Shown: positions 235-28,216 of the stretch, one piece after another | How the letters are laid out: every line of letters begins with the position of its first letter | How positions within the stretch are numbered: the stretch's first letter is position 1 | Assembly (NCBI GenBank): GCA_037724305.1 | Contig: JBBJOU010000001.1 | Coordinates: 1-29,277, forward strand | Reading direction: 5' to 3' | DNA from: Acidimicrobiales bacterium | Lineage (GTDB): Bacteria > Actinomycetota > Acidimicrobiia > Acidimicrobiales > JACDCH01 | DNA: 29,277 bases | The notes under the pieces: model-generated | What the model saw: only the letters and a program-made list of their open reading frames with translations | The model's database searches: none | Told to the model about the DNA's origin: nothing | Position numbers and translations under genes: made by a program

Positions 235-265
235 TTGACAGTTAGTACCCGGGGTGGGCGACAAT
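235..265 (+). promoter_or_regulatory. Candidate sigma70-type promoter for the ABC operon
   Basis: Perfect TTGACA at 235-240 and GACAAT at 260-265, 6 nt before the in-frame ATG at 272. The 19-nt spacer is longer than optimal. Confidence 0.35.
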
Positions 266-271
266 GCGGAC

Positions 272-1315
272 ATGAGCGACGGTGCGTCGGCGCCGGCGGC
301 GCTCGTGGGGGCTACCACCAAGGCCCGCCCCGGACCTGTCTCGGCGACGCCGGGCGAACCGGCCCTGGCCCGTCCCCCCGACATCATCCGCACCACCGGC
401 CTCTCCAAGACCTATCCTGACGGGCGCACGGCCGTCGACCATCTCGACCTGGCGGTGCGAAAGGGCGAGATCTTCGCCCTCCTGGGGCCCAACGGGGCGG
501 GCAAGACCACCACCGTCGGCATGCTCACCACCAGGGTCGTGCCCACGTCGGGGACCGCGCTCGTCAACGGGGTCGACATCGTCGCCGATCCGGCGACGGC
601 CAAGGCGAGCGTCGGGGTGGTCCCCCAGGCCAACACCCTCGACCGCAGCCTCAGCGTCTGGGAGAACCTCTACTTCCACGGTCGGTACTTCGGGCTCAAG
701 GACCGCGCCGCCAAGGCGGCCGCCGACCGGCTGCTCGAGAAGTTCCGGCTCACGGGCCGGGCCACGGCGGCGGTCACCACCCTCTCCGGCGGCATGGTCA
801 AGCGGGTCATGCTGGCCCGCGCGTTCCTGCCCCGGCCGGCGGTGATCTTCCTCGACGAGCCCACCGCCGGTCTCGATCCGCAGAGCCGGCTGGCGCTGTG
901 GGAGATCGTGGGCGAACTGCACGCCGAGGGCGAGACGGTCCTCATGACCACGCACTACATGGAGGAGGCGGAGCGCCTCGCGCAGCGCATCGCCATCATG
1001 GATCGCGGGCGGCTCCTGGCGCTCGACACGCCGGAGCGGCTCCGGCGCTCGGTCGCCTCGGGCCCGGTGCTGGTCGTGGATGCCGAGGGCGATCTCGACC
1101 GGCTGGGACGGGTGCTGCGCCACCTCCCGGGGGTCGTCGACGTCACGCCCGTCGACGGACGGTTGCGGATCCGCCTGGACGGTGCCGCGGGCACGGTTGC
1201 CGCGGTGGCGGCCGCCGCCAACGGCGACGGCTTCTCGCTCCGTAGCCTGTCGGTGGGGGAGTCCAGCCTCGAGACGGTCTTCATCGAGCTGACCGGGAAG
1301 GATCTGCGCGAGTGA
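272..1315 (+). CDS. ABC exporter ATP-binding subunit (DrrA/NodI-like)
   Basis: Walker A GPNGAGKT, signature LSGGM, Walker B IFLDEPT, H-loop TTHY. The ORF opens at GTG 254; ATG 272 is preferred as start. Confidence 0.95.
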   Translation: MSDGASAPAALVGATTKARPGPVSATPGEPALARPPDIIRTTGLSKTYPDGRTAVDHLDLAVRKGEIFALLGPNGAGKTTTVGMLTTRVVPTSGTALVNGVDIVADPATAKASVGVVPQANTLDRSLSVWENLYFHGRYFGLKDRAAKAAADRLLEKFRLTGRATAAVTTLSGGMVKRVMLARAFLPRPAVIFLDEPTAGLDPQSRLALWEIVGELHAEGETVLMTTHYMEEAERLAQRIAIMDRGRLLALDTPERLRRSVASGPVLVVDAEGDLDRLGRVLRHLPGVVDVTPVDGRLRIRLDGAAGTVAAVAAAANGDGFSLRSLSVGESSLETVFIELTGKDLRE

Positions 1316-2148
1316 GCCCACCGCCGGACGTCGCGACGGTGCCGCCTCGGGCCACCTCCACTGGGGCGGTGATGCGCGGGCTGCTGCTGCGCGACCTCAC
1401 CGTGCTCGACAAGTCGCTCGGCGAGTTCCTGCACAACACCGTCACCCAGCCCCTGCTGCTGGTGTTCGTGTTCACCTACCTCTTCCCCCTCATCGGCCAG
1501 GGGCTGGGCGGCGGCACCGACGCGGCATCGTCGAGGTTCGCCAGCCTCCTGCTGGCCGGTCTCATCGCCCAGGCCATGGCGTTCCAGGGCGTGTTCCGGG
1601 TGGCCGTGCCGCTGGCGAGGGAGATCGACGTCACCGGTGAGCTGGAGGGCAGGTTGCTCGCCCCGACGTCGATCTCGGTCCTGGCGATCGAGAAGATCAT
1701 CTTCGGCGCCATCCTCGCCCTGTTCGCCGCCCTGGTCGTCTTCCCGGTGGGCGCGTTCCTGCCGAGCACACCGATCTACCTCGCCGTCGACTGGCTGGTG
1801 CTGCTCACCCTGGTGCCGCTCTCGTGCTTCACGGCCGCCGCCCTCGGGCTCACGGTCGGCACCCTCCTGAAGCCGGAGTCGGTGCCCATGCTGTCGGGGA
1901 CCGTCGCCCTCCCCCTGGCCTTCGGTGGCGCCGTCTTCTACACCTGGGCGTCGCTCGACCCCGTGCCCTGGCTCAAGTACCTGGTCCTGGTCAACCCCAT
2001 CGTGTACATGAGCGAAGGGTTGCGGGCCGCCCTGTTCACCGGCGTCGACCACATGCCGCTCCCCGCCGTCTACGGCGCCCTCTCCGGCTTTGCCGTCGTC
2101 TTCAGCTTCCTCGGCATGCGCGGCTTCAAGCGGCGGGTGCTGACGTGA
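1312..2148 (+). CDS. ABC-2 type exporter permease
   Basis: About six hydrophobic segments and the ABC-2 C-terminal motif NPIVYMSEGLR. GTGA overlap with the ATPase stop. Confidence 0.92.
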   Translation: MSPPPDVATVPPRATSTGAVMRGLLLRDLTVLDKSLGEFLHNTVTQPLLLVFVFTYLFPLIGQGLGGGTDAASSRFASLLLAGLIAQAMAFQGVFRVAVPLAREIDVTGELEGRLLAPTSISVLAIEKIIFGAILALFAALVVFPVGAFLPSTPIYLAVDWLVLLTLVPLSCFTAAALGLTVGTLLKPESVPMLSGTVALPLAFGGAVFYTWASLDPVPWLKYLVLVNPIVYMSEGLRAALFTGVDHMPLPAVYGALSGFAVVFSFLGMRGFKRRVLT

Positions 2149-2155: not shown

Positions 2156-2593
2156 ATGAGGCGGATCTGGCGGTTGGGCGTCCTGGCGACGGTGGCCGTC
2201 GTCGCCTTCGCGGTCGCCGTCGAGCGCTTCGACGACGCCGCCGAGACCGGCTGTGCCCAACGGGCGCGCGAGGACCCCTCCTACGAGGCGCGCTTCATCG
2301 ACGAGCCGCAGATCGAGGTCCTCACCTACCGCGTGGCCATCACCCGCGAGGGCGAGGAGGTCGAAGGAGCGGACGTCTGCCTGAGCGCGTACATGCAGGG
2401 CATGTCGGCGATGGCCACCACCGGTGCCGGCCGAGAGGTCTCACCCGGGGTCTACGAGCTGTCGCTGACCTTCGAGATGGGCGGGCGGTGGTCGGGTCGC
2501 GTGCTGGTCGCCGAACCCGGGCAGTCGGTGGCCGCCATCCCCCTCACCCTGGAGATCCCGCCCGAGGAAGAGGCGACGGCGCCATCGGGATGA
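2156..2593 (+). CDS. Secreted/membrane-anchored YtkA/FixH-like protein
   Basis: Basic plus hydrophobic N-terminus (MRRIWRLGVLATVAVVAFAVA), Met cluster YMQGMSAM, and GVYELSLTFEMGGRW matching the YtkA-like G-x-Y...M-x-G-x-W pattern. Confidence 0.65.
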   Translation: MRRIWRLGVLATVAVVAFAVAVERFDDAAETGCAQRAREDPSYEARFIDEPQIEVLTYRVAITREGEEVEGADVCLSAYMQGMSAMATTGAGREVSPGVYELSLTFEMGGRWSGRVLVAEPGQSVAAIPLTLEIPPEEEATAPSG

Positions 2594-3348
2594 CCTGCTC
2601 CGGGTCGGCGAGCGAGGCGGGCCCACGGCCCGTTCCCATCGCACTCGTTGCGGCCGAGGTTGCCATCGTCGCGGTCGACCTGGCGAACGAGCAGCTCCGC
2701 ACACCCGAGCTGCTCGCCACCCTCGACGACGTCGAGCAGTCGGTGGCCGCACGATTCGTCCGTCCCGGTGACCGATGCCGCTACGAGGCGGCGCACGTCG
2801 GGCTCCGGGTGGTGCTGGCAGCGTGCGAGCGCACGGGGATGGCCGCGGTCACCATCGTCCGCACCGCCTGCAGGCGGTGCGGTGCGCCCCACGGCAAGCC
2901 CGTCCTGCTCGACCGGCCCGACGTCGGCTTCTCCCTCGCCCGTGCCGGCACCCTCGCGCTCGTCGCCGTCGCCGCGGGACCCGTTGGCGTCGACCTCGAG
3001 CCGGTCGACGGCCGGCCGCCGCCGAACCTCGTCCGCTCCATCTGCACTCCCGGCGAGGTGGGTGCGCTCGAGGCGGCGGGCGCACCGTCGGCGAACGTCC
3101 TGCGGATGTGGACCCGCAAGGAGGCCCTGCTCAAAGCGACCGGCGAGGGTCTGACCCGTGACCCCAGGACCGTCGAGGTCGGGCGGGGCGGGGCAACGAC
3201 CGTCGACGGCTTCCGGGTGACGGACGTCGATGTCGGCGTGGCCGGCTACGTCGCGGCGGCGTCGTGGGCCGGGAGCGCGCCGCGTCGCCTACGGCTCGGC
3301 GCCGTCGTCGTCGACGGGGGACAGCCCTCGTGGGTGATCGACGGGTAG
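2590..3348 (+). CDS. Sfp-type 4'-phosphopantetheinyl transferase
   Basis: Motifs HGKP, VGVDLE and WTRKEALLKATGEGL. ATG at 2590 overlaps the upstream TGA (ATGA). Confidence 0.93.
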   Translation: MTCSGSASEAGPRPVPIALVAAEVAIVAVDLANEQLRTPELLATLDDVEQSVAARFVRPGDRCRYEAAHVGLRVVLAACERTGMAAVTIVRTACRRCGAPHGKPVLLDRPDVGFSLARAGTLALVAVAAGPVGVDLEPVDGRPPPNLVRSICTPGEVGALEAAGAPSANVLRMWTRKEALLKATGEGLTRDPRTVEVGRGGATTVDGFRVTDVDVGVAGYVAAASWAGSAPRRLRLGAVVVDGGQPSWVIDG

Positions 3349-6300
3349 CGGCTCAGCGCCCCTCACCGGCAGCTGCGACACGCGCTGCTGGCGGTCGTCG
3401 ACCACGGCGGCGAGCAGGGCGTCGAGGCCCTGGGCCAGGTACTCGATCGTCGGCTGGTCGTAGAAGTCGACCTTGTAGCTGAACTCCCCCCAGAGTTGGG
3501 CGCCGTCATCGAGGACGGTGACGACGAGCGGGTGCAGGTGGCCCCGGAAGAACAGCTCGTCGGGCCCCTTGTCCGGGCCCGGGCGCTCGACGACCGCCGC
3601 GCCCGGGGTCCACTCGTCGTGCGCGGTGTGGAAGTACTGGAACTCCACCGGGACGGCGGCGAGCAACGCCGGGCCACCCTTGGGGAGGTCGGCCAGGACG
3701 GCCTGGCGGACCCGCATGAACGGGATGTCCTGGTGCTCGAACAGGCCGAGGACGGTGGCGCGTGCCCGGGCCACGACGGTCTCGAAGCTGGGGTCGCCGG
3801 ACAGGTCCGTGCGAATCCGCCCGACACCGTGGAAGCAGCCGACGAGCCCGTCCAACTGGGACTGCTGGCGCCCGCTGAGCGTCGTGCTCAGCACGATGTC
3901 GGTCAGGCCGCCGGCGCGACAGAGCAGGGTCTGCAGCGCCGCGGCGATGACGACGAAGACCGTGCTCTGTGTCGTCCTCGCCAGCTCGCGCAGTCCCGCG
4001 TACAGGTCGCCGGCGACCGAGATCGGTTGCGTCTCGATGCGTCTCGTGGGCTGTTCCGGGATCCGGTCCAGCGGCACCGCCGGACCGAGGGGCATCCCCG
4101 TCAGCGTGGCCTTCCAGTAGTCGAGCTGCGCGTCCAGCAGCTCCTCGCTCAACCAACTCCGCTGCCACAGGGCGAAGTCGGGGTACTGGACGGGAAGCGG
4201 TCGCAGCGTGGGTGCCGAGCCGGCGGCGAGCGCCTCGTAGGCGGCGTCGAGCTCGCTGAGGAAGATGTAGGCGGAGGTGCCGTCGCAGACGAGGTGGTCG
4301 AAGGTGACGGCGACCATGGCGCTGCCGTCGGCGAAGCGGTACGACCGCGAGCGTGACAGCGGGGCACGCGTCAGGTCGAAGGGCGCCGCGTCCTGCTCGC
4401 TGAGCTGTCGGTGGAGCACCTCGTCGAGTTGGTCGGGCGCAACGCCGGTCAGGTCGCAGGTCTGGAGGTCCGCCGGTACGTCGTGTTCGACCCGCTGGTA
4501 CGGGCCGTCGGCGTCGGTGTGGAAGCTCGTGCGCAGCGTCTCGTGGCGCGCCGCGAGGTGCTCGAGCGCCCGGCGCAGGACCGCCTCGTCGACGCCACCG
4601 ACGAAGCGGTGCTGGGCGGTGACGTTGAAGAGACCGGGAGGATCGGCCGACGCCTCCAGCTGCCACATCTGTTGCTGGGAGAGGGTCAGCGGGATACGCG
4701 TCGCGGCGTCGCGCTCCTGCGGCACGAGCGGCGGCCGGTGATCGTGATCGTCGCTGCGCATCGGGGCCACGAACGCCGCCAGGCGGGCGATCGTCGGCGC
4801 CTCGAACAGCGCCCCCACGCCGATCTCGACCCCGAACGCCTGGCGCACGTCGGCGATCACCTGGGCCGCCTGCAGGGAGTGCCCGCCGAGCTCGAAGAAG
4901 TCGTCGTCGACCCCGATGACGTCGATGCCGAGGATCCGCGACCAGACCTCGGCGATCGTCTGCTCGGCGGGGGTCCGGGGCGCCACCCGGTCGCCGGTCA
5001 GCTCGGCGCTCGGGTCGCCCGGCGGTGGCAGCGCAGCCCGGTCGACCTTGCCGTTGGGCGTGAGCGGGAGCCCGGAGAGTCGCACGAAGGCGCTCGGGAC
5101 CATGTACGGCGGTAGCCGGTCGGACAGGAAGCGGCGCAACTGGACGGGCGCGGCGGCGCCGTCGACGGCGGCCACGACGTAGGCGACCAATCGACGCCGG
5201 CCGGGTTCGTCCTCCCGGGCGACCACCGTTGCCTCGGCGACCTCGGGGTGCTGGCCGAGGGCGCGCTCGATCTCGTGGCACTCGATGCGGAAGCCGCGGA
5301 TCTTGACCTGCTCGTCGGCCCGGCCGGCGAAGTCGAGGTTGCCGTCGTCGAGCAGGCGGACGAGATCGCCGGTGCGGTACAGGCGCTCGCCCGGGCGGTC
5401 GGGATCCGCGACGAAGCGCTCGGCGGTCAGATCCGGGCGGTTGAGGTAGCCGCGGGCGATGCCCACGCCGCCGATGTGCAGGTCGCCCACGTCGCCGGCG
5501 GGGACGTCGTTCCCGCGCTCGTCGAGGATCCTGGCAGTCGCGTTGGCGATCGGCGTGCCGATCGGTGGGTCGCCCACCATCGGCTCCGACGCTGACGCCG
5601 GGGGCTCGTAGATGGTGGCCACCACGGTCGCCTCGGCGGGCCCGTAGGCGTTGCACCAGCGCACGCGCCGCCCACCGAGCTCCAGCCACGAGCGGTAGGC
5701 GGACCCAAGGGCCTTCTCCCCGCCGACGATCACGAGGCGGACGCACTTGGGTACCTGCTCTCCGATTGCCTCGAGGTCGCGGACCCATTCGTGCCAGTAC
5801 GCCGTCGGGAGGTTGAGCACGGTGATCTCCATGCGCCGTACCCACTCGAGCCAGGGCCGTCCGAGGACCGGGAGGTCGTCGGGCCGCAGCACCAGGGTGG
5901 CGCCCGACGTCCACGTGGGGAAGATCTCCTCGATGCTGGCGTCGAAGGCGATGGAGCAGAACTGCAGGACTCGGTCGCCAGGCGCCAGCTCGTACAGCGC
6001 GCTGACGGCGACGCTGTGGTTGACCAGCCCGCGATGGGTCAGCATGACCCCCTTGGGGACCCCGGTCGATCCCGAGGTGTAGATGACGTAGGCGAGGTGC
6101 TCGGCCCCCGTCGTGCGCGCCGGCGCAGCCGCCACCGGACCGTCGTCCGCGGTGCCGTCGACATCGACGAGGACGACGTGCCCGCCGTAGGTCGGCAGTC
6201 GCCGGGCGTGACCTTCGTGGGTCAGCAGCACCGGCGGGGCGGCGTCGTCGAGCACCAGCCCGAGGCGCGTCGCCGGGTACGACGGATCGAGCGCCACGCA

Positions 6301-6609
6301 CGCCCCGCCCGCCAGTTGGACGGCGAGCAGACTGACCGCCAGGGCCACCGAACGGTCGAGGAACACGGCCACCACGACGTCCGGTCCGACCCCGTGGTGG
6401 CGGAGGCGGCGGGCGAGCCGGCCGGCCCGTTCGTGGAGCTCGTCGTAGGTGAGCACCACGTCGCCGCCGATCAACGCGACGGCGCTGGGCGTGGCCGTGG
6501 CCTGCGCCTCGAGGAGGTCGGCGAGGGTCGCTTGTTCGGGGAACGGCGCCGGCGGCCCCGCGATCCGGCTGACCCCCGCCGCCGACACCTCCGACCCCGC
6601 CGCGTCCAT
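3289..6609 (-). CDS. Non-ribosomal peptide synthetase, A-T-C architecture, no thioesterase
   Basis: A-domain motifs YTSGSTGVPKG, FDAS, NAYGPAE, YRTGD, KIRGFRIE, LTPNGKVD. Carrier FFELGGHSL (GGHS at 4876-4887). C domain with RHETLRTSF and DHLVCDG (4279-4299). Start is ATG 6609 or GTG 6615. Confidence 0.95.
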   Translation of the reverse strand: MDAAGSEVSAAGVSRIAGPPAPFPEQATLADLLEAQATATPSAVALIGGDVVLTYDELHERAGRLARRLRHHGVGPDVVVAVFLDRSVALAVSLLAVQLAGGACVALDPSYPATRLGLVLDDAAPPVLLTHEGHARRLPTYGGHVVLVDVDGTADDGPVAAAPARTTGAEHLAYVIYTSGSTGVPKGVMLTHRGLVNHSVAVSALYELAPGDRVLQFCSIAFDASIEEIFPTWTSGATLVLRPDDLPVLGRPWLEWVRRMEITVLNLPTAYWHEWVRDLEAIGEQVPKCVRLVIVGGEKALGSAYRSWLELGGRRVRWCNAYGPAEATVVATIYEPPASASEPMVGDPPIGTPIANATARILDERGNDVPAGDVGDLHIGGVGIARGYLNRPDLTAERFVADPDRPGERLYRTGDLVRLLDDGNLDFAGRADEQVKIRGFRIECHEIERALGQHPEVAEATVVAREDEPGRRRLVAYVVAAVDGAAAPVQLRRFLSDRLPPYMVPSAFVRLSGLPLTPNGKVDRAALPPPGDPSAELTGDRVAPRTPAEQTIAEVWSRILGIDVIGVDDDFFELGGHSLQAAQVIADVRQAFGVEIGVGALFEAPTIARLAAFVAPMRSDDHDHRPPLVPQERDAATRIPLTLSQQQMWQLEASADPPGLFNVTAQHRFVGGVDEAVLRRALEHLAARHETLRTSFHTDADGPYQRVEHDVPADLQTCDLTGVAPDQLDEVLHRQLSEQDAAPFDLTRAPLSRSRSYRFADGSAMVAVTFDHLVCDGTSAYIFLSELDAAYEALAAGSAPTLRPLPVQYPDFALWQRSWLSEELLDAQLDYWKATLTGMPLGPAVPLDRIPEQPTRRIETQPISVAGDLYAGLRELARTTQSTVFVVIAAALQTLLCRAGGLTDIVLSTTLSGRQQSQLDGLVGCFHGVGRIRTDLSGDPSFETVVARARATVLGLFEHQDIPFMRVRQAVLADLPKGGPALLAAVPVEFQYFHTAHDEWTPGAAVVERPGPDKGPDELFFRGHLHPLVVTVLDDGAQLWGEFSYKVDFYDQPTIEYLAQGLDALLAAVVDDRQQRVSQLPVRGAEPLPVDHPRGLSPVDDDGAEP

Positions 6610-6635
6610 GATCACTGAGGCTATGGTTCGTGGCC
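6610..6635. promoter_or_regulatory. Candidate bidirectional promoter with overlapping -10 elements for two leaderless mRNAs
   Basis: TATGGT (+, 6622-6627) lies 8 nt before ATG 6636. TAGCCT (-, 6623-6618) lies 8 nt before ATG 6609. Neither start has a Shine-Dalgarno. Confidence 0.5.
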
Positions 6636-7631
6636 ATGGCCGCTGCCGGTGGGACGCGTCTCGTGCTGTTGGGAACCGCCGGCGGGCCGCTCCCGTCGCC
6701 GGTCCGCTCGGGGATCTCCCAGGCGGTGGTCGTCAACGACCGGGTGTACGTCGTCGACTGCGGCACCGGGGTGACCGGGCAGTTGCGGCGCGCCCGCCTC
6801 CTGTCGCAGCTCCACGCCGTGTTCCTCACCCACCTGCACTCCGACCACGCCTGCGACTACTTCAACCTCTTCCTGCTCGGCTGGCCGATCATCCAGCACG
6901 GGCCCCCCGTGCGTGTCTACGGCCCGGGGTCGGCGGGACCGATGTGCGCACTCCCCGAGGAAGGGCCGGACGAGCCGGCGATCCCCCTGGTGAACCCGGA
7001 GAACCCGACGCCCGGTCTGGTCGACGTCACCGAGCACCACGTCAGGGCCAACGCCTTCGACCTCAACATCCGCATGCGGGAGTCCGGGCGCAGCGACCTC
7101 ACCGAGCTGATCCTGGCTGAGGAGATCGGTGTCCCCGGCGACCTCGGGGCCAACCCGTTCGACGTGGCCCCGACGATGGCCCCGATGCTCGTGCACGAGG
7201 ACGACGCCGTCCGGGTCACGGCCGTCCTCGTGCAGCACGCACCGGTGTTCCCGGCGTTCGCCTTCCGGTTCGACACCGACGACGGCTCGATCGTGATCTC
7301 CGGTGACACCGCCCCCTGCGCCAACGTGGTCGCGCTGGCACAGGGAGCCGACGTGCTCGTGCACGAGGTGTTCAACGACGGCGCGCCCGACGAGTGGGAC
7401 GACGAGGAGACGTGGGAGGCCAAGCAGCGCCTGCACCACCTCCTCACGTCGCACACGCCCCTCAGCGAGGTGGGCCAGATCGCCGCCCGGGCCGACGTGG
7501 GCCGGCTCGTGCTCACCCACTTCATCCCCGGTGACGACACGCTGCCCGACGCCCACTGGCTCGGCGGCATCGACAGCAGCTTCACCGGCGAGGTCGTCGT
7601 CGGTCATGACCTGCTCGAGATCCCCCTGTAG
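6636..7631 (+). CDS. MBL-fold metallo-hydrolase, RNase Z/arylsulfatase-like subfamily
   Basis: LLGTAGGP N-terminus, VVDCG, HLHSDH (HxHxDH), SGDT, VHEV, SHT and LTH motifs. Confidence 0.88.
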   Translation: MAAAGGTRLVLLGTAGGPLPSPVRSGISQAVVVNDRVYVVDCGTGVTGQLRRARLLSQLHAVFLTHLHSDHACDYFNLFLLGWPIIQHGPPVRVYGPGSAGPMCALPEEGPDEPAIPLVNPENPTPGLVDVTEHHVRANAFDLNIRMRESGRSDLTELILAEEIGVPGDLGANPFDVAPTMAPMLVHEDDAVRVTAVLVQHAPVFPAFAFRFDTDDGSIVISGDTAPCANVVALAQGADVLVHEVFNDGAPDEWDDEETWEAKQRLHHLLTSHTPLSEVGQIAARADVGRLVLTHFIPGDDTLPDAHWLGGIDSSFTGEVVVGHDLLEIPL

Positions 7632-7650: not shown

Positions 7651-8301
7651 TCACCCGGACAGGGTGTCGAGCAGGTCCTCCATCTCGGGGATCATCGCCT
7701 CCTGCTCGGCCTTGATGGATTCGGCCAGCGCGACGACGTCGGTCTCGTCGCCGTCGCTGATCTCGCGATCGGCCATCGCCACCGCGCCCTCGTGGTGGGT
7801 GATCATGCCCTCGAGGTAGAGCTGATCGAACTCGGCGCCGCTCGCTTCCTCCAGCTCGGCGAACTCGTCCTGGGTGAGCATGCCGTCCATGCGGTCCATG
7901 GTGCTCATGTCCATGCCACCCATGGCGCCGAGCTCTTCCTCGCCGAGCGATTCGAGCAGGGTCTGCATCTCGTCGATCTCGGTGACATGGGTGGCGTCGA
8001 TCTCCTCGGCGAGGGCGACGACGTCCGGGCTCTCGGCGGCGTCCGCCGCCAGGGCGTTCATCGCCACGGCCTGCTCGTGGTGGACGAGCATGTTCTGGAG
8101 GAACTCGACGTCGGGGTCGACGTCCATGCCCTCCTCCATGTCCTCCTCCATGTCCATGTCGCCCATGTCGTCGTCGCCCTCCTCGCCGCCCTCCCCGGTC
8201 GTGACATCGGCACCGGTGTCGACCTCGGGATCGTCGTCGCTCGCGCATGACGCGCCGAACAGCACGATCAGCGCACAGGCAGCTGCAGATATGGGACGCA
8301 T
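7651..8301 (-). CDS. DUF305 (CopM-like) lipoprotein, Met/acidic-rich
   Basis: AGGAGA SD just upstream of ATG 8301. Signal peptide ending FGAS-C (lipobox-like). Two DUF305 repeats (FLQNMLVHHEQAVAM; YLEGMITHHEGAVAM). Confidence 0.9.
   Translation of the reverse strand: MRPISAAACALIVLFGASCASDDDPEVDTGADVTTGEGGEEGDDDMGDMDMEEDMEEGMDVDPDVEFLQNMLVHHEQAVAMNALAADAAESPDVVALAEEIDATHVTEIDEMQTLLESLGEEELGAMGGMDMSTMDRMDGMLTQDEFAELEEASGAEFDQLYLEGMITHHEGAVAMADREISDGDETDVVALAESIKAEQEAMIPEMEDLLDTLSG
8130..8159. repeat. Short coding tandem repeat (CCTCCTCCATGT x2 plus partial)
   Basis: The 12-bp unit occurs at 8130-8141 and 8142-8153. It encodes part of the DMDMEEDMEEGM Met/acidic linker on the minus strand. 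Confidence 0.6.
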
Positions 8302-16515: not shown

Positions 16516-16518
16516 ACG

Positions 16519-20590: not shown

Positions 20591-20595
20591 GCGCG

Positions 20596-21114
20596 GTGTG
20601 CGGGCCCGAGGCCGGCGAGCCCGTCTCGACGGGTGAGGCCGGCGCCGCTCGACCCTCGACCGCCCCCGGTGGTTGGGCCGCGGTCCACCACGTCGGCGTC
20701 ACGGTGCGCGATCTCGACCGCTCGGCCGCCTTCTGGGAGCGGCTCGTCGGATCTGCGGCACGGGACCGCCGGGTCCTGCAGGGGCCCCAGCTCTCGACGA
20801 TGGTCGGCTACGAGGGCATCCGCATCGACTCGTGCTGGGTCGACCTCCCGGGCGGGGTGGCGCTGGAACTGCTCCAGTACCTCGACCGCAACGATGCGGC
20901 CTATGACCCCGGCACCGCGCACCCCGGCAACGTGCACGTGTGCCTGCGCGTCGACGACATGGACGCCGCCCACGCCCATGCCGTGGCGTGTGGTGCCCAC
21001 CCGGTGAGCGAGCGGCCGATCGAGGTCGCCGCCGGCCCCAAGGCCGGGACCCGCCTCGCCTACCTGCGCGACCTCGACGGCGTGACCATCGAGCTGATCC
21101 AGCCCTCACCGTGA
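20596..21114 (+). CDS. VOC-family protein (glyoxalase/methylmalonyl-CoA epimerase-like)
   Basis: HHVGVTV, LELLQY, HVCLRVDD and DLDGVTIELIQ give a complete His/Glu/His/Glu metal ligand set. Start uncertain. Confidence 0.85.
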   Translation: MCGPEAGEPVSTGEAGAARPSTAPGGWAAVHHVGVTVRDLDRSAAFWERLVGSAARDRRVLQGPQLSTMVGYEGIRIDSCWVDLPGGVALELLQYLDRNDAAYDPGTAHPGNVHVCLRVDDMDAAHAHAVACGAHPVSERPIEVAAGPKAGTRLAYLRDLDGVTIELIQPSP

Positions 21115-22868
21115 GCGAGCTCGCGAGCACCGCCCCCGTCGTGCCCGACCTGCTCCGGGCCCGGGCCGCCGACGATCCGGACGCCGTGGCCCTCCGAGTG
21201 GGCGACGCTGGCGAGCTGACGCTCGGCGACTGGGAACGACGGTCCAATGCCGCCGCCCGAGGCCTCGTTGACCGGGGCCTGCGACCGGGCCAGCTGGTGG
21301 CGCTGCTCCTCGACAACGATGACCTGGTCGAGTACGCGGTCGGCTATCTCGCCGTGCTCAAGGCCGGTGCCGTGGCCGTGCCGTTGGGCCGCCGCTTCGC
21401 CGGCCCGCAGCTCGACCACATTCTGCGCTCCGCCACCGTCGTCGGCGTCCTGTCGGGGACCGGTGCCCCGCCGCTAGCGGCGGGCGCGTGGGTGGCGCGA
21501 CCCGCCGCGCTGGAGGCCGACCAGGCGGACGACCGCTACCAGGTCGGCGTCGAGAGCACCGAGCTGGCCGAGGTGATCTACACGTCGGGCACGACCGGGA
21601 TGCCCCAGGGCGTGACCTGCACCCACGCCAACCTCATGGCCCACGACGTCCCGCCCGACGCCGCCGCGGTGCACGGCACGATCTCGTTCCTGCACTGTTT
21701 CCCGATCGGGACCCAGGCAGCACAGGAGGCGATGCGGGTGCCGCTCCGGGTGGCGAAGCGCGTGGCGGTGGCGCTCCCCGTCTTCGACCCGGCCCAGTTG
21801 TGCGCCCTCGTCGCCCGCCACCGGGTCGCCCGGCTCCAGCTGGTGCCGGCGTTGGCCCAGATGCTGGTCAGCTCGGACGCCCACCGCCACCACGACCTGT
21901 CGTCGGTGCGCCGGGTGATCCTGTCGTCGGCCCACGCCCCTCCGGCGCTGTTCGCCCGCCTCACCGAGATCTTCCCCGAGGCCACGCTGTGGAACGCCTA
22001 CGCCCTCACCGAGGCCGGTGGTGCCCGCACCCTCATGCAATGGGACGAGCGCCGCCCCTCTTCGGTCGGCCGGCCGGTGGGCGAGACCGAGCTGCGCATC
22101 GTCGGCGAGTCCGGCGACGACCGGGGGACGGGCGAGACCGGTGAGGTGTGGCTGCGGCGCCGGGCGACGCCCACGCGGGGGTACTACCGGGACCCCGCCG
22201 CCACCGCCGCCGTGTTCGTCGACGGCTGGGTGCGCAGCGGCGACCTCGGCCACCTCGACGCCGACGGGTACCTGCACCTCGACGACCGCCTGAAGGACGT
22301 CATCATCTCCGGCGGCCTCAACATCAGCTCGGTCGAGATCGAGGATGCCCTCAGCGAGCACCCGGCGGTGGTCGAGGCGGCGGTGTTCGGCGTGCCCCAC
22401 CCGGTGCTCGGCGAACAGGTCGCCGCCGCCGTGGTGGCCGCTCCCGGCACCACCGAGCGCGACCTGCGCAACTTCGTGCGCACCCGCCTGGCCGAGCACC
22501 AGGTGCCGCGCCGCCTGGTGCTGGTCGACGAGCTGCCCCGCAACCCCTCGGGCAAGGTGCGCAAGACCGACCTGCGCCGGCGCTACGGCGAGGACGGGTC
22601 AGCCGCCCCGAACGTTGCCCCCACGGGGACGATGGAGGAGGCGGTGGCGGCGGTGTGGGCGGAGCTGCTGGGCGTGCCGGCGGTCGGCGCCCACGACGAC
22701 TTCTTCGCCCTCGGCGGCCACTCGCTCGTCGCCGTGCAGATCACCGCCCGCCTCGGTGAGGCGTTCGGCATCGAGCTGGATGCCGGCGCCGTGTTCGAGG
22801 CGCCGACGGTCGCCGAGCTGGCGGTCGTGCTTGCCGCGGCCCGCGCTGCGAGCGGGGCCGGCACGTAA
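21111..22868 (+). CDS. Acyl-CoA-ligase-type adenylation domain fused to a peptidyl carrier (A-T loading protein)
   Basis: YTSGTTG, YALTEAG, RSGDLG, DRLKDVIISGG and PRNPSGKV, followed by FFALGGHSL (GGHS at 22713-22724). GTGA overlap with the VOC stop. Confidence 0.92.
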   Translation: MSELASTAPVVPDLLRARAADDPDAVALRVGDAGELTLGDWERRSNAAARGLVDRGLRPGQLVALLLDNDDLVEYAVGYLAVLKAGAVAVPLGRRFAGPQLDHILRSATVVGVLSGTGAPPLAAGAWVARPAALEADQADDRYQVGVESTELAEVIYTSGTTGMPQGVTCTHANLMAHDVPPDAAAVHGTISFLHCFPIGTQAAQEAMRVPLRVAKRVAVALPVFDPAQLCALVARHRVARLQLVPALAQMLVSSDAHRHHDLSSVRRVILSSAHAPPALFARLTEIFPEATLWNAYALTEAGGARTLMQWDERRPSSVGRPVGETELRIVGESGDDRGTGETGEVWLRRRATPTRGYYRDPAATAAVFVDGWVRSGDLGHLDADGYLHLDDRLKDVIISGGLNISSVEIEDALSEHPAVVEAAVFGVPHPVLGEQVAAAVVAAPGTTERDLRNFVRTRLAEHQVPRRLVLVDELPRNPSGKVRKTDLRRRYGEDGSAAPNVAPTGTMEEAVAAVWAELLGVPAVGAHDDFFALGGHSLVAVQITARLGEAFGIELDAGAVFEAPTVAELAVVLAAARAASGAGT

Positions 22869-22973
22869 GGGTCGCGGGACGACGAGTGGCGGCGGAGTCG
22901 GTCGGTGGCGGAACGCCTCGCGACCGAGGAGGAGTTGATCGACGCCGGCAACGGGTGTGCTACTGACGTCGGC

Positions 22974-24281
22974 GTGTCCTTCGTCGAGGTCTGCGTCATC
23001 GCCCTCGCCCTGGTTTCCTATGCGCTGATCTCCAAGCGGATAGAAGGTTGGCCGCTGAGCATGCCCATGGTCTTCGTCGGCCTGGGCTGGATCACTGAAG
23101 CCACCGGCGTGGTGTCGTTGTCGACCGAGACAGGCCAGGTGGCCGTGCTCGCCGAGGTCACCCTGGCGATCATCCTCTTCGGCGACGCCGTACGCATCAA
23201 CGTCCGCGCCCTCGGCCACGACCTGTCGCTTCCCGCCCGCTTGCTGCTCATCGGACTCCCGCTGAGCATCGCCACCACCACCGCCGTGGTGGCGTTGGTG
23301 TTGCCCAGGTTGTCGCTGGCCGAGGCGGCCCTGGTGGCGGCCGTGCTCGCCCCCACCGATGCCGCCCTGGGCAAGGAGGTGGTCGAAGACGAGTCGGTCC
23401 CTCAGCGGATCCGGCGATCGCTCAATGTCGAGTCCGGGCTCAACGACGGGATGGTGCTCCCGGCCGTGCTGATCTTCCTGGCGCTGGCCAAAGGGGAGGA
23501 GACCACGGCCGGGTTCTGGAGTCGCTTCGTCTTCCAGCAGGTGGGCCTGGGTGTGGTCATCGGCATCTCGGCCGGGGCCGCCGGGGCCTGGCTGCTCCTC
23601 CGGGCCCAGGACCGGGACTGGGTCGAAGGGATCTACGCCCAGTTGGGCACCTTGGCCGTTGCCGTCTTGGCCTTCGCCGGTGCCGATACAGCGGGAGCCA
23701 ACGGCTTCATCGCCGCCTTCGTGGCCGGCTTGGCCTTCGGGGCCATCGCCGGGCGGGGCCGGGGGGACCACCTGGTCGAGTACACCGAGGACAGCGGCCA
23801 GCTCTTGGCCGTGGTCGCCTTCTTCGCCTTCGGCAACCTCTTCGTCAACGATGCCCTGCGCGCCCTCTCGCCGGGGGTGGTGGCCGCCTCGGTGGCCGCC
23901 TTGACGCTCGGGCGACTCCTGCCGGTGGCCTTGGCCATGACCGGCACGGGGGCGGCCTGGCCCACCAAGGTCTTCGTCGGTTGGTTCGGGCCGAGGGGGC
24001 TGGCCTCCATCGTCTTCGGCCTGTTGCTTCTCGAAGAGGACCTGGCCGGCGCCGAGGAGCTGTTCGCCATCATCGCCTTGACGGTGGTGGCCAGCGTGTT
24101 CGCCCACGGCGCCTCGGCCGCCCCGTGGTCTCGGGCCTACGGGCGCTGGTTCGCCGCCATGTCGACGCACGAGCGCCAGTCCATGCCCGAGTCCCTGCCC
24201 GTCCCGCCGGGACGCAGCCGGTGGTCGACGGCTCGGTCACATCCGGACGCCGATCCTGGTGGGGGCAGCGGGTCCCGGTAG
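22974..24281 (+). CDS. CPA1/NhaP-like cation:proton antiporter
   Basis: Many transmembrane segments with LAPTDAALG, ESGLNDG and GWFGPRGLASIV. The ORF opens at GTG 22905; GTG 22974 is preferred. Confidence 0.92.
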   Translation: MSFVEVCVIALALVSYALISKRIEGWPLSMPMVFVGLGWITEATGVVSLSTETGQVAVLAEVTLAIILFGDAVRINVRALGHDLSLPARLLLIGLPLSIATTTAVVALVLPRLSLAEAALVAAVLAPTDAALGKEVVEDESVPQRIRRSLNVESGLNDGMVLPAVLIFLALAKGEETTAGFWSRFVFQQVGLGVVIGISAGAAGAWLLLRAQDRDWVEGIYAQLGTLAVAVLAFAGADTAGANGFIAAFVAGLAFGAIAGRGRGDHLVEYTEDSGQLLAVVAFFAFGNLFVNDALRALSPGVVAASVAALTLGRLLPVALAMTGTGAAWPTKVFVGWFGPRGLASIVFGLLLLEEDLAGAEELFAIIALTVVASVFAHGASAAPWSRAYGRWFAAMSTHERQSMPESLPVPPGRSRWSTARSHPDADPGGGSGSR

Positions 24282-24344
24282 TAGCGCCGAGATTGCGTCG
24301 GATGACGGGGACTCGACTTCCGCCATCTCGCCCTCCCTTCGGAT

Positions 24345-26372
24345 CTATGCCTCAGCATGGCGCATCGGTCCGGCGGGTTGGGCGGCGAGCGCCACCGCCA
24401 GCATCTCGGGGGTCCGGCACCGGGTGAGCTGCTCGTCGGTGAGGGCCAGGCCGGCCTGACGGGCCTCCGCCAGCGCGGTCAGGAACGAGAAGTCCTGCCA
24501 GTAGATGTCGGTGGTGGACATCGGTTCGCCGCGCGCCTCGCTCCACAGCCCCGCCAGGAGCGTGGCGGCAGGGTCGGGGTCCTCGGCGCCGTGCTCGCCG
24601 GTGGTCGCCATGGCCTCGACGTCGAGGGTGGCGTCGGGACGGCGGTGGAGGGCGTCGACGGTCACGAGCCGGGCGGGCCAGAGCGAGCCCGGGAGCTCCG
24701 CCCAGAGCGCGGCGCGTAGCCCCGAGAGCGTCGGTCGGTCGTCGTCGTCGGCCACGACGAACGCCACCAGTCGGGGGCCGTCGTCCGCGTCGACGACGGC
24801 CACGCCCACGTCCGCCACGTCCGGGCACCGCTCGAGCGCGGCCTCGATGCGGGAGCGTCGGGCCCGGAACCCCCTGAGCTCGACCCGGTCGTCCGCCGGG
24901 AGGACCTCGGGGGAGACGTTGGGAGGCGGGACGGCGGCGGCGATCTCGCTGACGCGCCGGTGGGGGTCGGCGGCGACGGCGGCCAGCAGCGCTTCGAAGT
25001 GCTCGAGCAGCTCGGCGACGACGGGCCGGTCGAACACGCCCCTGGCCACCAGCGCCATCTCGTCGGGGTTGGCGAGCAGGGACAGGATCAGGAACGTGCC
25101 GGCATACGCACCATCGCCCCAGACGGGCGCAGGGCTCGGGTCGCCCTCCGCCTGGTCGTCCTCCCGCGCCCCGGCGCTGAAGTGGCGTTCCCGGCGGGAG
25201 TCGACGGGGGTGTCGTAGCCGGTCGTCCGGATCCCCGGCAACACGAGCTTGGTGGGCTGCGGGGTCTCGCCCTGGAAGACGACGGCGATCTGGGGCACGA
25301 CCCCGTGGGCGGCGGCGGCGGGGCCGAGGGTCTCGGCCACGACGGCCTCGAACGCCGGGTCCTGGTGGGCCATGGCGCCGAGGACGCTGCTGCGGCCGCG
25401 AGCGACCAGCTCCGGGAACGAGGGGTCGTCGTCGAGCGACAACCGGACCAGGATCTTCTTGGTGAAGCAGCCGATCAACGGTTCGAGCTCGGTCCGGTTT
25501 CGGTGGGCCACGACCGAGGCCATGACGAGATCGAGCTGACCGGTGATCCGGGCGACCAGCACCGCGAACGCCGCCAGCGCGGTCATGAACGGGGTCGCCC
25601 GCAGCTCACGAGACAGGGTGCGGAGGCGGGTGGCGAGCTCGTAGGGGAGGTCCCGGCGCACGGGTTCTCCCGACGGCGGGCGTCCCCGGCCGGCCCCGTC
25701 GGGCGCAGCGATCGGGAGCTGCACGCTCAGGGGGGCGCCGGCCAGGTGCGTCCGCCACCACGCCAGCTGCGCCGCTCCCACCTCGCCGGCGACGACGGAC
25801 CGCTCCGTGCGGGCGAAGTCGACGAAGGTCGTGGCCAGCTCGGGGAGGGGCGACGACCGGCCGTCGAGGAACGACGCGTAGAGCGCGGAGAAGTCCTTGC
25901 GGAACACCTCGACCGACCAGTCGTCGAAGACCGTGTGGTGGAGCCGGACGACGAGAACGTGGTCGTCGGTCCCGAGACGCACGAGGCGGGGGACGAACAG
26001 CGGACCGTGGACGAGGTCGAACGGCCGGCTGGACGCGTCGGCGAGGAGGCGGGTCATCTCGGCGTCCCGGGCTTCTTCCGGTCGGTCGGCGAGGTCCGTC
26101 ACGGCCAGCGCGAACGTCCCGGGCTCACCCACGACCTGCCACGGGGTCCCGTCGACGAGCTCGAAGGTCGTGCGCAACGGCTCGTGGCGGCGGATGAGCT
26201 CGGACAACGCGCGCTCCAGGGCGGCGGTGTCGAGCGGGCCCCGGTAGCGGCGGACGAGGCACGGCAGGTTGAAGCTGCCCGGCGAGAACTGCTCATGCCA
26301 GAGCATGGCGTCCTGGGAGATCGCCACTGGGCCGGCCGGCTCTGGGGAGGGGGCCCCGGCCGGGTCGGTCAC
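24345..26372 (-). CDS. NRPS-like protein: condensation domain + isolated A-subdomain + degenerate carrier remnant
   Basis: C domain with RRHEPLRTTF and HHTVFDD (25920-25940). Then ADDRVELRGFR from 24896, RLVAFVV and LPGSLWPAR (A8-A10 region with no A core). Then LWSEARG..., T-like but without GGxS. GTGA overlap with the CoA-transferase stop. Confidence 0.85.
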   Translation of the reverse strand: MTDPAGAPSPEPAGPVAISQDAMLWHEQFSPGSFNLPCLVRRYRGPLDTAALERALSELIRRHEPLRTTFELVDGTPWQVVGEPGTFALAVTDLADRPEEARDAEMTRLLADASSRPFDLVHGPLFVPRLVRLGTDDHVLVVRLHHTVFDDWSVEVFRKDFSALYASFLDGRSSPLPELATTFVDFARTERSVVAGEVGAAQLAWWRTHLAGAPLSVQLPIAAPDGAGRGRPPSGEPVRRDLPYELATRLRTLSRELRATPFMTALAAFAVLVARITGQLDLVMASVVAHRNRTELEPLIGCFTKKILVRLSLDDDPSFPELVARGRSSVLGAMAHQDPAFEAVVAETLGPAAAAHGVVPQIAVVFQGETPQPTKLVLPGIRTTGYDTPVDSRRERHFSAGAREDDQAEGDPSPAPVWGDGAYAGTFLILSLLANPDEMALVARGVFDRPVVAELLEHFEALLAAVAADPHRRVSEIAAAVPPPNVSPEVLPADDRVELRGFRARRSRIEAALERCPDVADVGVAVVDADDGPRLVAFVVADDDDRPTLSGLRAALWAELPGSLWPARLVTVDALHRRPDATLDVEAMATTGEHGAEDPDPAATLLAGLWSEARGEPMSTTDIYWQDFSFLTALAEARQAGLALTDEQLTRCRTPEMLAVALAAQPAGPMRHAEA

Positions 26373-28216
26373 GGCGTGAACGCCCAGGGGGTCGACGGGG
26401 CCCGGCAGCTGGCGGCGAGCGTCTCGAACATCGCCGCCACGGCGGGATCGGTGGTCAGCGCCGCCAGCTCGGTGGTGACTGCTGCGCAGGCGATGCCGGC
26501 CTCGGTGAGGAGCCGCACCACCGCCTCCGAGGATTCGTCACCGATGCGCCCGGCCACCCGCACGTCGAGTGGTGCGCCGGGGCCGTCGAGGTCGAGCTCG
26601 TAGAGCTCGCCCAGCCGGCGTTGCGTCTCCCGGTCGCCGGCATCCACCACGATGAAGCCGTCGCTCGTCGCCACCGGGACGTCGAGGGCGCCCCACACCG
26701 GCCGGCCCCGGCGGCGACCCGGGTCGCCGCCGGCGACGACGCCGTCGAGCACATGGGCCTGCAGCGCCATGGCGCCGGACTGCAACGACGTGCGCACTCG
26801 GGTGCCGCGCCCGTCCAGCGCCTGGCGGTACAACCCGGAGAGCACGCCCTCGCAGGTGACCAGCGCGCCGAGGAAGTCGGTCAGGAGGACACGGCTCGGG
26901 AACGGCGGCTCGTTCTCGGGGTTGATCCCGTAGCCGAGGCCGGTGTGGGCCTGGACGAGGAAATCGGTGCCGATCACCCCGGACGCGCTCGAACCGGGCT
27001 CCCACCCGGCGGCCTCGGTGTAAACGAGCCCCGGGTTGCCCCTCGAGAGGTCGGAAGCGCTCAGGCCCCACTCGGCCGCCTTGCCGGGCCGCCAGTTGTG
27101 CAGGAAGGCGTCGGCGCTCGAGGCGAGCTCGGCGAGCTCCGCCCGTCCGGCGGGGGTGGCGAGGTCGACCTCGATGGTGTGCTTGGCCCGGTTGAAGCAG
27201 AGGAAGAACGAGCCGGTGTCGCCGGCGAGCGGCGGCACCCCCCGGCCCACGTCGCCGCCGGGTGACTCGACCCGGGTGACGTGAGCGCCGAGCATCTGGA
27301 GCAGCAGGCCGGCCAGTGGTCCCTGGAGGCGGCTCGTCGCCTCCACCACCCGCAACCCGGCGAGGGGCAGGTCGTCACCGGGCCCGCCGTCGGCGATCGG
27401 CGCGACCGCGGGAGGGCCGCCGGCACCGTCGCCGGCCGGAAGGAGCGCGTCGACGAGCGGGTGGCCCCCCGACGGTGCTCCCTCGGCCAGCACCTCGTCG
27501 TAGTCGCGGACGAGGCTGAGGCTGACCCCGCACTCGCTGGCCACGCCGGTGACCGCCTCGAGGGTGACGGCGGCGGTCGCCTCGTGGAAGCCGACGGGCG
27601 TCGACGAGGTGCCCCTGTAGTAGCGGGGCCGGAACTGCGTCCACGCCCGGCCGATCTCGGCCTCGGGTGCGCCGAGGCGCAGCCAGAACGCCTTCCACGC
27701 CTCGGGGTCGAAGGTCTCGATCTCGAACCAGCGACCGTCGGCGGTGGCGAACGGCGGCCCGGGCGCCGGGTTCGGCGCCGGCCACCAGTCCTGCGGGCAC
27801 GTCGCCGCCGCCAGGTAGTGCGACGCCTGGAACAGGCCGGCCTGCAGCACCGAGGTGTGGACGGTGCTGGTCGAGCGGCCCCGCCGCCCGCCGATGGCCA
27901 TGGCGAGCATCGCCTGGGCGGCGAACATCCCGGCCGCCACCGAGGCGACCTCCACCCCGATGCGCCGGGGCCCGCCGTGATCGCGCCCGTGGAGGTGCAT
28001 CAGCCCCGTCGCCGCCTGCACCAGGGCCTCGCTGCCGGCCTGGTCCGGCGGTCGTGCCGACCCCCACCAGGAGATCTCGCACGACACCGGCCGGTCGGCG
28101 CCGGCGCCGTCCGGCCAGGTGACGACGCCGGTCGCCCCGGTGCTCGTCTCCGGGCGGGCGCCGAGCGCCGCCAACCGCCGCACGCAGGTCTGCACCGCCA
28201 ACTCCGGTCCCGTCAC
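26369..28216 (-). CDS. Tandem-domain family III (CaiB/BaiF) CoA-transferase
   Basis: Second half has PLAGLRVVE, MLGAHVTRVESP, FNRAK, ADAFLHNWRPG and LLTDFLG. First half has SEALVQAATGLM...ASVAAG and DGRWFE. GGAGG SD 5 nt before GTG 28216. Confidence 0.88.
   Translation of the reverse strand: MTGPELAVQTCVRRLAALGARPETSTGATGVVTWPDGAGADRPVSCEISWWGSARPPDQAGSEALVQAATGLMHLHGRDHGGPRRIGVEVASVAAGMFAAQAMLAMAIGGRRGRSTSTVHTSVLQAGLFQASHYLAAATCPQDWWPAPNPAPGPPFATADGRWFEIETFDPEAWKAFWLRLGAPEAEIGRAWTQFRPRYYRGTSSTPVGFHEATAAVTLEAVTGVASECGVSLSLVRDYDEVLAEGAPSGGHPLVDALLPAGDGAGGPPAVAPIADGGPGDDLPLAGLRVVEATSRLQGPLAGLLLQMLGAHVTRVESPGGDVGRGVPPLAGDTGSFFLCFNRAKHTIEVDLATPAGRAELAELASSADAFLHNWRPGKAAEWGLSASDLSRGNPGLVYTEAAGWEPGSSASGVIGTDFLVQAHTGLGYGINPENEPPFPSRVLLTDFLGALVTCEGVLSGLYRQALDGRGTRVRTSLQSGAMALQAHVLDGVVAGGDPGRRRGRPVWGALDVPVATSDGFIVVDAGDRETQRRLGELYELDLDGPGAPLDVRVAGRIGDESSEAVVRLLTEAGIACAAVTTELAALTTDPAVAAMFETLAASCRAPSTPWAFTP

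Follow-up and report, generated by a model that had tools for sequence, protein, structure and literature searches.

A horizontally scattered gene cluster family of predicted nonribosomal peptide synthetase type with a remodelled aspartyl-tRNA synthetase paralog in uncultured soil and rock bacteria

The 29,277-nucleotide contig JBBJOU010000001.1 of an uncultured Acidimicrobiales bacterium (assembly GCA_037724305.1; the whole contig is referred to as the window) carries parts of a nonribosomal peptide synthetase (NRPS) together with genes of aromatic acid metabolism, glycosylation and sulfation and a paralog of aspartyl-tRNA synthetase (AspRS), and raises the question whether these genes form a single pathway, what such a pathway would produce and why a tRNA synthetase is found among them. 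The original prediction, made from the nucleotide sequence, had described positions 254 to 28216 as a split NRPS cluster devoid of a thioesterase (TE) domain that would make a glycosylated, sulfated aryl-amide. The window is contig C1 of a fragmented metagenome-assembled genome (MAG; 2.47 Mb, 421 contigs, 79% complete); because many spurious open reading frames arise at a G+C content of 72%, as found along the whole window, frames were picked by their third-position G+C (GC3 frame plot), and the 23 proteins were scanned against Pfam and NCBIfam (Table 1). All gene families that had been listed were present, including four adenylating enzymes of the ANL superfamily, two carriers and two condensation (C) domains; the list had omitted the conserved gene of a metallo-β-lactamase (MBL)-fold hydrolase. 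Likewise, the cluster was not delimited by position 28216: since the truncated β-helix gene at the right end of the window is itself a conserved member, the cluster reaches the contig end.

Judged from sequence comparison, the window is one copy of a conserved, uncharacterised and horizontally scattered NRPS-type cluster family of uncultured soil and rock Actinomycetota and Dormiibacterota. In a large protein collection, the NRPS protein composed of adenylation (A), thiolation or carrier (T) and C domains (A-T-C) had over 100 orthologues of equal length (54–87% identity) and the AspRS paralog more than 117 (58–72% identity); all named sources of both were uncultured Actinomycetota. When 185,579 species genomes were scanned, orthologues were confined to MAGs from Egibacteraceae, Solirubrobacterales, Acidimicrobiales and Candidatus Dormiibacterota, and cultured organisms gave generic NRPS matches of at most 40% identity and no orthologue, the scan being based on six exact peptide patterns that distant orthologues may escape; this agrees with the earlier view that the gene combination has no recognised characterised counterpart. 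Among 40 relatives from GTDB no orthologue of the A-T-C protein was found (generic NRPS matches, the best with 49% identity over A-T), and the AspRS paralog occurred in one of 150 sampled genomes of the class: its distribution is therefore patchy and not lineage-wide.

Linkage was followed in the gene neighbourhoods of eight long contigs and by tblastn of the window proteins against 25 related loci, many of which are short contigs, so that the partner counts (Table 1) are lower bounds. The gene order was fixed in the Solirubrobacterales, with one operon of A-T, AspRS paralog and CoA-transferase and a divergent operon of glycosyltransferase (GT1), pyridoxal phosphate (PLP) enzyme, VOC protein, MBL protein and A-T-C; the window holds the genes of these operons in shuffled order. 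Direct reading of its sequence revealed four-nucleotide start/stop overlaps (NTGA) at 1312, 2590, 11860, 19187, 21111 and 26369. The CPA antiporter was without counterpart in the related loci except in a near-identical strain (locus L079); it was for this reason not counted in the cluster and probably lies outside of it.

The layout of the window was reproduced independently: a 24-kb contig from the rock metagenome of another study spans positions 10000–29277 at about 99% identity, including the junction between the CoA-transferase and the second C-domain protein and the full chorismate lyase gene. Near-identical DNA was present in at least 20 public metagenome runs of 11 studies (soil, rock, hypolith and terrestrial samples; 31-mer matches to window 14000–23900), i.e. 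either the organism or the cluster has a wide geographic range. Locus L079, a 71-kb contig of the Joint Genome Institute from a related, near-identical strain, exhibited a mosaic identity to the window (96%, 90% and 86%), which suggests recombination between populations. At window 22874–22910, the A-T gene and the CPA antiporter are set farther apart in the rock contig by about 1.9 kb of additional sequence.

The A domain of the A-T-C protein contained the motifs FDAS, NAYGPAE, YRTGD, GRADEQVKIRGFR and PNGK and scored 428 bits with TIGR01733 (cut-off 317). Its specificity code, read by motif position, was DAENIGAVVK (D[VA]EN[IV]GA[VI]xK in 87 orthologues), and the best named model for the A-T part was that of the lysine-activating MxcG (521 bits); as Glu at position 239 and Asn at position 278 fit a basic side chain, we read the domain as being of Lys- or Orn-type, with no choice between both, and retain the basic amino acid that had been proposed for this protein. 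The carrier motif GGHSL with its phosphopantetheine serine was found in both A-T-C and the A-T loader, and an Sfp-type phosphopantetheinyl transferase (PPTase) for their activation is putatively at hand, its gene lying within the cluster in L014 and L081, too. Tested for HHxxxDG, both C domains of the window possess the second His and the Asp, the variants DHLVCDG (A-T-C) and HHTVFDD (second C-domain protein) each being fixed across the family (terminal DHxxxD[G/M] in the 87 A-T-C orthologues). In searches of the PDB, both domains were nearest to the C domains of the teixobactin synthetases Txo1/Txo2, starter and elongation types not being told apart. None of the 23 window proteins matched Thioesterase or NAD_binding_4, i.e. 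no TE or reductase (R) domain was detected, and the TE-less architecture stands; release by the terminal C domain, as had been proposed, is one option only, since the MBL gene adjoins A-T-C in 18 loci, and the MBL hydrolase and the terminal C domain are both candidate substitutes for a dedicated release domain. Similarly, the aryl or acyl starter proposed for A-T is supported in so far as its A domain is of acyl-CoA-ligase type (nearest solved structures: fatty-acyl/feruloyl-CoA synthetases, FadD5 and FadD13), but nothing shows that 4-hydroxybenzoate is loaded: A-T is not FadD22-like, and the FadD22-like ligase of the window carries no carrier. The window contains no free-standing carrier gene. 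The predicted working line consists of two carriers and two C domains; this fits a scheme of starter, C domain, amino acid and terminal C domain without proving it.

The second of these C domains resides in a protein of broken appearance (C-Asub: C domain, vestigial A-subdomain and serine-less, carrier-like tail). It aligned to the second NRPS of the relatives (organized as A1-T1-C-A2-T2, 1622 amino acids in L016; G041 was aligned as well) and, compared with that of L016, lacked module 1 and exactly the A2 core. In a survey of ten loci, only the C domain, the A2 subdomain and the T2-like tail were universal, the A2 core being absent in six; where A2 was retained (L016, G041 and L043), it was dead, with Lys of the P-loop, Asp of A7 and Lys of A10 all lost. 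The T2-like tail was serine-less everywhere (YWQ-xFSF instead of FFxLGGxS), and the C motif HH[ST]V[FY]DDWS was invariant in all ten loci. The full second NRPS thus has the appearance of a scaffold in decay that surrounds a single live C domain, and C-Asub is, on this alignment evidence, its conserved minimal form and not a broken gene. An assembly artefact or fresh pseudogene was rejected because the arrangement is reproduced in other samples and the core-less form occurs in five other loci. Also rejected was the idea that the lost A2 had been an Asp-activating domain replaced by the AspRS paralog; the former A2 specificity is unreadable, as the surviving A2 domains are already dead. No missing first module was found elsewhere in the 79%-complete MAG. 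In L016 (15979–20847; the other second NRPS is located at G041:C1:11710–15948), A1 is likewise without P-loop and A10 Lys.

The AspRS paralog passes the NCBIfam equivalog cut-off for archaeal-type aspartate–tRNA(Asn) ligase; the same MAG encodes a bacterial-type housekeeping AspRS on contig C225. Alignment to the Thermococcus enzyme (1B8A/3NEL) and across 117 relatives demonstrated that the Asp/ATP site is retained, with QSPQxxK, RH, DxE, GAQREHR and motif 3 being at least 95% conserved. All 117 relatives lack the flipping-loop Glu and carry R, Q or K in its place, and FRAE of motif 2 has become FRAN or FRAQ in 116 (Glu is kept in a single sequence). Furthermore, the Phe and Gln positions of the N-terminal OB-fold, which we take to be those by which canonical AspRS reads the anticodon, are variable, and the N-terminal domain as a whole is less constrained than the core (pairwise identity 47% versus 68%; conserved columns 26% versus 57%). 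The flipping-loop Glu is described to bind the aspartate amino group, the loop later anchoring A76 for transfer, and the motif II Glu to contact the adenine amino group (PMC12262901). Fixed replacements at these sites, in combination with a retained adenylation core, argue for a new acceptor rather than for decay or plain resistance. The paralog is, as far as its conservation pattern indicates, an integral, remodelled enzyme of the cluster family and not a passenger, and we lean, if only slightly, towards its being a tRNA-independent aspartate (or aspartate-like) ligase.

If it were instead a self-resistance or back-up synthetase that still charges tRNA(Asp), with an AspRS inhibitor such as an aspartyl-adenylate mimic as the product, the full set of residues for tRNA binding and transfer would be expected, and this set appears not to be retained: the flipping-loop Glu is missing throughout, the presumed anticodon positions are not conserved, and the N-terminal domain has diverged far more than the core. 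The cluster also contains no nucleoside-modifying genes, and we consider this explanation unlikely. It would nonetheless account for the equivalog match, for the preservation of all adenylate-forming residues and for the second, housekeeping AspRS that usually accompanies such copies; sulfamate natural products that hijack AspRS are known (PMC12262901), and both a sulfotransferase and an aminotransferase are encoded in the cluster. Literature searches yielded no description of AspRS paralogs in gene clusters.

With regard to the aromatic branch, the chorismate lyase is assigned at family level to a predicted supply of 4-hydroxybenzoate, and the sulfotransferase is often translationally coupled to it in the related loci. 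The FadD22-like ligase scored 439 bits with the NCBIfam model of FadD22 (NF004716; cut-off 1228) and 357 bits with that of benzoate-CoA ligase (cut-off 375); as only profile positions 4–489 of 705 of the former were covered, the enzyme is without carrier. Its orthologues (61–73%) occurred in 5 loci and those of the PaaA-like di-iron protein (65–94%) in 6, in which the short-chain dehydrogenase/reductase (SDR) gene travels with the latter; the PaaA-like protein stands without PaaBCDE partners, and the protein atlas gave generic PaaA/PaaC clusters only. Of the two glycosyltransferases, GT1 b has 56–68% orthologues that head a GT1-aminotransferase-VOC operon in 19 loci, and GT1 a shares only 43–49% identity with the one GT1 that most relatives have (L079, L080 and L083 possess two). 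GT1 and sulfotransferase are thus conserved partners, in agreement with the proposed glycosylation and sulfation. The best solved relative of the MBL protein was the MBL-fold arylsulfatase 8gyg (E 5e-29; HxHxDH kept; similarity in two aligned segments); no signal peptide was detected, and the protein could remove a phenolic sulfate or represent the missing hydrolase for chain release.

The genes for aromatic acid and sulfate could accordingly be viewed as a side module that makes 4-sulfooxybenzoate or transiently sulfates a phenol, the MBL protein removing the sulfate in a protecting-group, prodrug or sulfate-shuttle cycle, with the NRPS line starting from a different acid made by PLP enzyme, VOC protein and CoA-transferase. 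The coupling of chorismate lyase and sulfotransferase in Solirubrobacterales-type loci, apart from the NRPS operons, would agree with such a separation, as would the arylsulfatase similarity of the MBL protein, the resemblance of A-T to fatty-acyl/feruloyl-CoA synthetases and not to FadD22, and the occurrence of GT1, PLP enzyme, VOC and A-T (or MBL and A-T-C) in one operon everywhere. However, the arylsulfatase similarity is confined to two segments, the activities of RNase-Z-like MBL enzymes are manifold, an aryl-sulfate sulfotransferase is missing, and the FadD22-like ligase in the subtype of the window points to hydroxybenzoate activation; a side module is therefore given a low probability.

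The best explanation, which we regard as reasonably probable, is a conserved NRPS-type cluster family with a proposed pathway of six steps. A-T would be loaded with a carboxylic acid, maybe 4-hydroxybenzoate from the chorismate lyase; in the subtype of the window, FadD22-like ligase, PaaA-like di-iron enzyme and SDR may modify it beforehand, in the form of its CoA thioester. The free-standing C domain would join the loaded acid to Lys or Orn bound to A-T-C. The acyl-amino acid would then leave by one of two routes, namely transfer by the terminal DHxxxDG C domain to an acceptor with an amine or hydroxyl group, or hydrolysis by the MBL protein. The AspRS paralog would activate aspartate and add it without tRNA, the GT1 enzymes would attach one or two hexoses and the sulfotransferase a sulfate, and the DrrAB-like pump would export the product, plausibly a glycosylated and sulfated amide of an acyl or aroyl group with a basic amino acid.

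Several points weigh against this pathway. Its steps were read from sequence alone and the product is predicted only; a search of RNA runs found none with the window sequence; and the dimer of the AspRS paralog, modelled together with the carrier of A-T, scored 0.00, which according to the tool is neither support nor counter-evidence. A-T gave no match to the NCBIfam model of FadD22, so that 4-hydroxybenzoate is no more than a candidate starter acid. The genes of FadD22-like ligase, PaaA-like protein and SDR are missing from most relatives, so that an aromatic branch independent of the NRPS line is possible, and the 4-hydroxybenzoate supply may even be dispensable, as about 490 nucleotides of the chorismate lyase gene are deleted in the near-identical L079 (window 12785–13407 versus L079 10778–10909). 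Finally, PLP enzyme, VOC protein and CoA-transferase have no step in the proposed scheme.

That the window is a chance mosaic of unrelated neighbouring genes, as might be concluded from a gene order unlike that of most relatives, from the poor or missing conservation of CPA antiporter, DUF305 protein and second ligase and from close taxonomic relatives without the cluster, is hardly credible, since at least 12 of the genes, although rearranged, are found in each other's company in MAGs of four lineages, and since the window has many four-nucleotide start/stop overlaps; the co-occurrence across genomes, with partners recurring in 25 related loci, confirmed the cluster as a real one.

The predicted pathway resembles known systems in parts. 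As in myxochelin biosynthesis (MxcE/F/G), a C domain would link an aryl or acyl acid, bound to a carrier of its own, to an amino acid of lysine type; however, the 521 bits of the A-T part are far under the equivalog cut-off of MxcG (2300), the domain order is A-T-C and not C-A-T-R, reductase, TE and dihydroxybenzoate genes are lacking, and GT1, sulfotransferase, AspRS paralog, PLP enzyme, VOC, MBL and CoA-transferase are added. The free-standing C domain with its possible free acceptor presumably recalls VibH. The mycobacterial pathways of p-hydroxybenzoic acid derivatives (p-HBAD) and phenolic glycolipids share with the window a chorismate lyase of the Rv2949c family, a FadD22-like ligase (439 bits) and GT1-type glycosyltransferases; in contrast to them, the window ligase is without the FadD22 carrier, neither Pks15/1 nor another polyketide synthase is encoded in the window, and the genes are combined with an NRPS; in most family members, the lyase occurs without the ligase. 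The AspRS paralog may, as we assume, be likened to MshC of mycothiol biosynthesis, AsnA and the amino acid:carrier-protein ligases, in which an adenylate core is kept, tRNA determinants are eroded and the neighbours are biosynthetic; it differs from such paralogs by its archaeal-type AspRS parent and by its retained, weakly conserved N-terminal OB domain. The cluster of the window appears not to show the full set of defining features of the myxochelin, p-HBAD or MshC-type systems. The position of an MBL protein with HxHxDH beside a sulfotransferase of 3'-phosphoadenosine 5'-phosphosulfate (PAPS) type and a phenol-producing enzyme is reminiscent of S4 arylsulfatases (8gyg) and of the two-step sulfation of caprazamycin; but the window MBL has no signal peptide, its similarity is limited to two segments, an aryl-sulfate sulfotransferase is lacking, and a thioesterase-like role is equally possible. 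The MBL-fold arylsulfatases of family S4 have been classified (PMC5066984).

Literature searches for the combination of chorismate lyase, sulfotransferase, glycosyltransferase and NRPS returned nothing relevant. The window belongs to an orphan cluster family with some unusual enzymology, and no new principle is suggested. As the cluster is common in uncultured bacteria (over 100 distinct orthologue clusters, and near-identical DNA in no fewer than 20 soil, rock and hypolith metagenome runs), its metabolite probably has an ecological role in those habitats. Two questions of enzymology are testable, namely the role of an AspRS without tRNA-handling residues but with aspartate activation and why a C domain is retained along with defunct A and T remnants. 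At about 29 kb, with two carriers and two C domains, the minimal form in the window is of a practical size for synthesis and heterologous expression.

Table 1. Genes of the window with their positions, strand, basis of assignment and occurrence in 25 related loci (tblastn; lower bounds; percentages are identities of orthologues).
Gene product	Position	Strand	Basis	Related loci
DrrA-like ABC ATPase (254–1315) and ABC-2 permease (1312–2148)	254–2148	+	Pfam ABC_tran, DrrA1-3_C, ABC2_membrane	8–10 (pair with YtkA)
YtkA-like small envelope protein	2156–2593	+	Pfam YtkA E 1e-10; N-terminal hydrophobic segment	9 (after ABC pair)
Sfp-type 4'-phosphopantetheinyl transferase	2590–3348	+	Pfam ACPS E 7e-15; NCBIfam HetI-like; ATGA overlap with YtkA stop	
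NRPS A-T-C	3289–6615	-	Pfam; carrier GGHSL; terminal C DHLVCDG; basic-amino-acid-type A domain	
MBL-fold hydrolase, arylsulfatase-like	6630–7631	+	Pfam Lactamase_B(_2); HLHSDH motif	18 (beside A-T-C)
DUF305/CopM-like lipoprotein	7651–8301	-	Pfam DUF305 E 3e-40; NCBIfam CopM domain; lipobox-like N-terminus	3
PAPS-type sulfotransferase (Sulfotransfer_3)	8344–9561	+	Pfam E 8e-40; PRTGTT and RHPSE motifs	8
FadD22/benzoate-CoA-ligase-like aryl acid ligase, no carrier domain, start codon uncertain	9588–11132	-	NCBIfam	5–6 (with PaaA-like and SDR)
PaaA/PaaC-like di-iron protein, 244 aa	11129–11863	-	Pfam PaaA_PaaC E 1e-17; two ExxH motifs	5–6 (same trio)
SDR oxidoreductase	11860–12789	-	Pfam adh_short; ATGA overlap with PaaA-like start	5–6 (same trio)
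Chorismate pyruvate-lyase (Rv2949c-like)	12854–13564	-	Pfam PF01947, 49 bits (cut-off 22)	10
GT1 glycosyltransferase a (extra paralog)	13607–14866	-	Pfam EryCIII-like, UDPGT	
Stand-alone acyl/aryl-CoA ligase (accessory)	14917–16515	+	Pfam AMP-binding	4
Archaeal-type AspRS paralog, remodelled active site	16519–17850	-	NCBIfam NF003483, 401 bits (cut-off 353)	15
GT1 glycosyltransferase b (core member)	17982–19190	+	Pfam	19
Class III PLP enzyme (aminotransferase or racemase type)	19187–20590	+	Pfam Aminotran_3 E 3e-90	16 (69–78%)
VOC/glyoxalase-fold metalloenzyme	20596–21114	+	Pfam Glyoxalase_4; H/E/H/E ligand pattern read from sequence	16 (64–78%)
A-T loader, acyl-CoA-ligase-type A domain	21111–22868	+	Pfam; intact carrier (GGHSL)	14 (53–64%)
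CPA K+/H+ antiporter	22905–24281	+	Pfam Na_H_Exchanger	
C-Asub: C domain (HHTVFDD), vestigial A-subdomain, serine-less carrier-like tail, 675 aa	24345–26372	-	Pfam	9
Family III CoA-transferase/racemase-like, 280-aa N-terminal extension	26369–28216	-	Pfam CoA_transf_3 E 6e-73	8 (51–64%, same ~615-aa length)
Secreted right-handed β-helix (NosD-like) protein, cut by contig end	28540–29277	+	Pfam Beta_helix, NosD; signal peptide read	15 (34–52%)

Among the remaining members, the PLP enzyme was nearest to solved structures of γ-aminobutyric acid aminotransferases and of fold-type-I amino-acid racemases/epimerases; the solved relatives of the CoA-transferase matched its residues 283–540 only and leave the N-terminal extension unexplained. 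The likeliest use of these two enzymes and the VOC protein is the formation of an unusual acid or amine building block or the epimerisation of a thioester. The ABC pair (orthologues of 56–80% identity, mostly in cluster-linked loci of Acidimicrobiales) is a probable exporter.

Small secreted or lipoprotein genes of copper-protein-like fold recurred in the neighbourhood (YtkA-like in 9 loci, DUF305/CopM-like in 3, cupredoxin-like in 3 and NosD-like β-helix in 15). The cupredoxin-like lipoprotein (LAGC lipobox; tail with a Cys/His/Met copper-site-like pattern) stands beside the AspRS paralog in L080 (11304–11708), L082 (8361–8837) and L083 (11310–11768); it is absent from the window, where the DUF305/CopM-like and YtkA-like genes are found instead. 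A peptide/nickel-type (Opp/Nik) ABC importer (SBP_bac_5, BPD_transp_1) adjoins the cluster in L014 (1–216), L015 (1–400) and L082 (16802–20459) and is a possible uptake system for the product. These neighbours are a lead to a metal-related role, nothing more: a copper-linked metallophore is conceivable as the product, given that secreted proteins of cupredoxin-, YtkA-, CopM- and NosD-like type and importers of peptide/nickel type are repeatedly found beside the cluster. The most far-reaching version, in which an AspRS acting as tRNA-independent Asp ligase and a pared-down NRPS (A-T, lone C, A-T-C) would furnish desert and rock Actinomycetota with a glycosylated, sulfated acyl-peptide, possibly such a metallophore, is put forward tentatively and with considerable doubt.

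A tRNA scan of the window revealed no tRNA gene and an Rfam scan no match. In the Solirubrobacterales and Egibacteraceae versions of the cluster, a split kinase resembling rifampin phosphotransferase/phosphoenolpyruvate synthase (PEP-utilizers and PPDK_N domains) is encoded at L014 16816–19403, L015 17210–19746 and L016 22361–23237, and in the same stretches a SnoaL_2 protein adjoins the second NRPS; in the window, neither gene was detected. The genes of PPTase and A-T-C in the window are convergent, and their 3' ends share 60 nucleotides (3289–3348).

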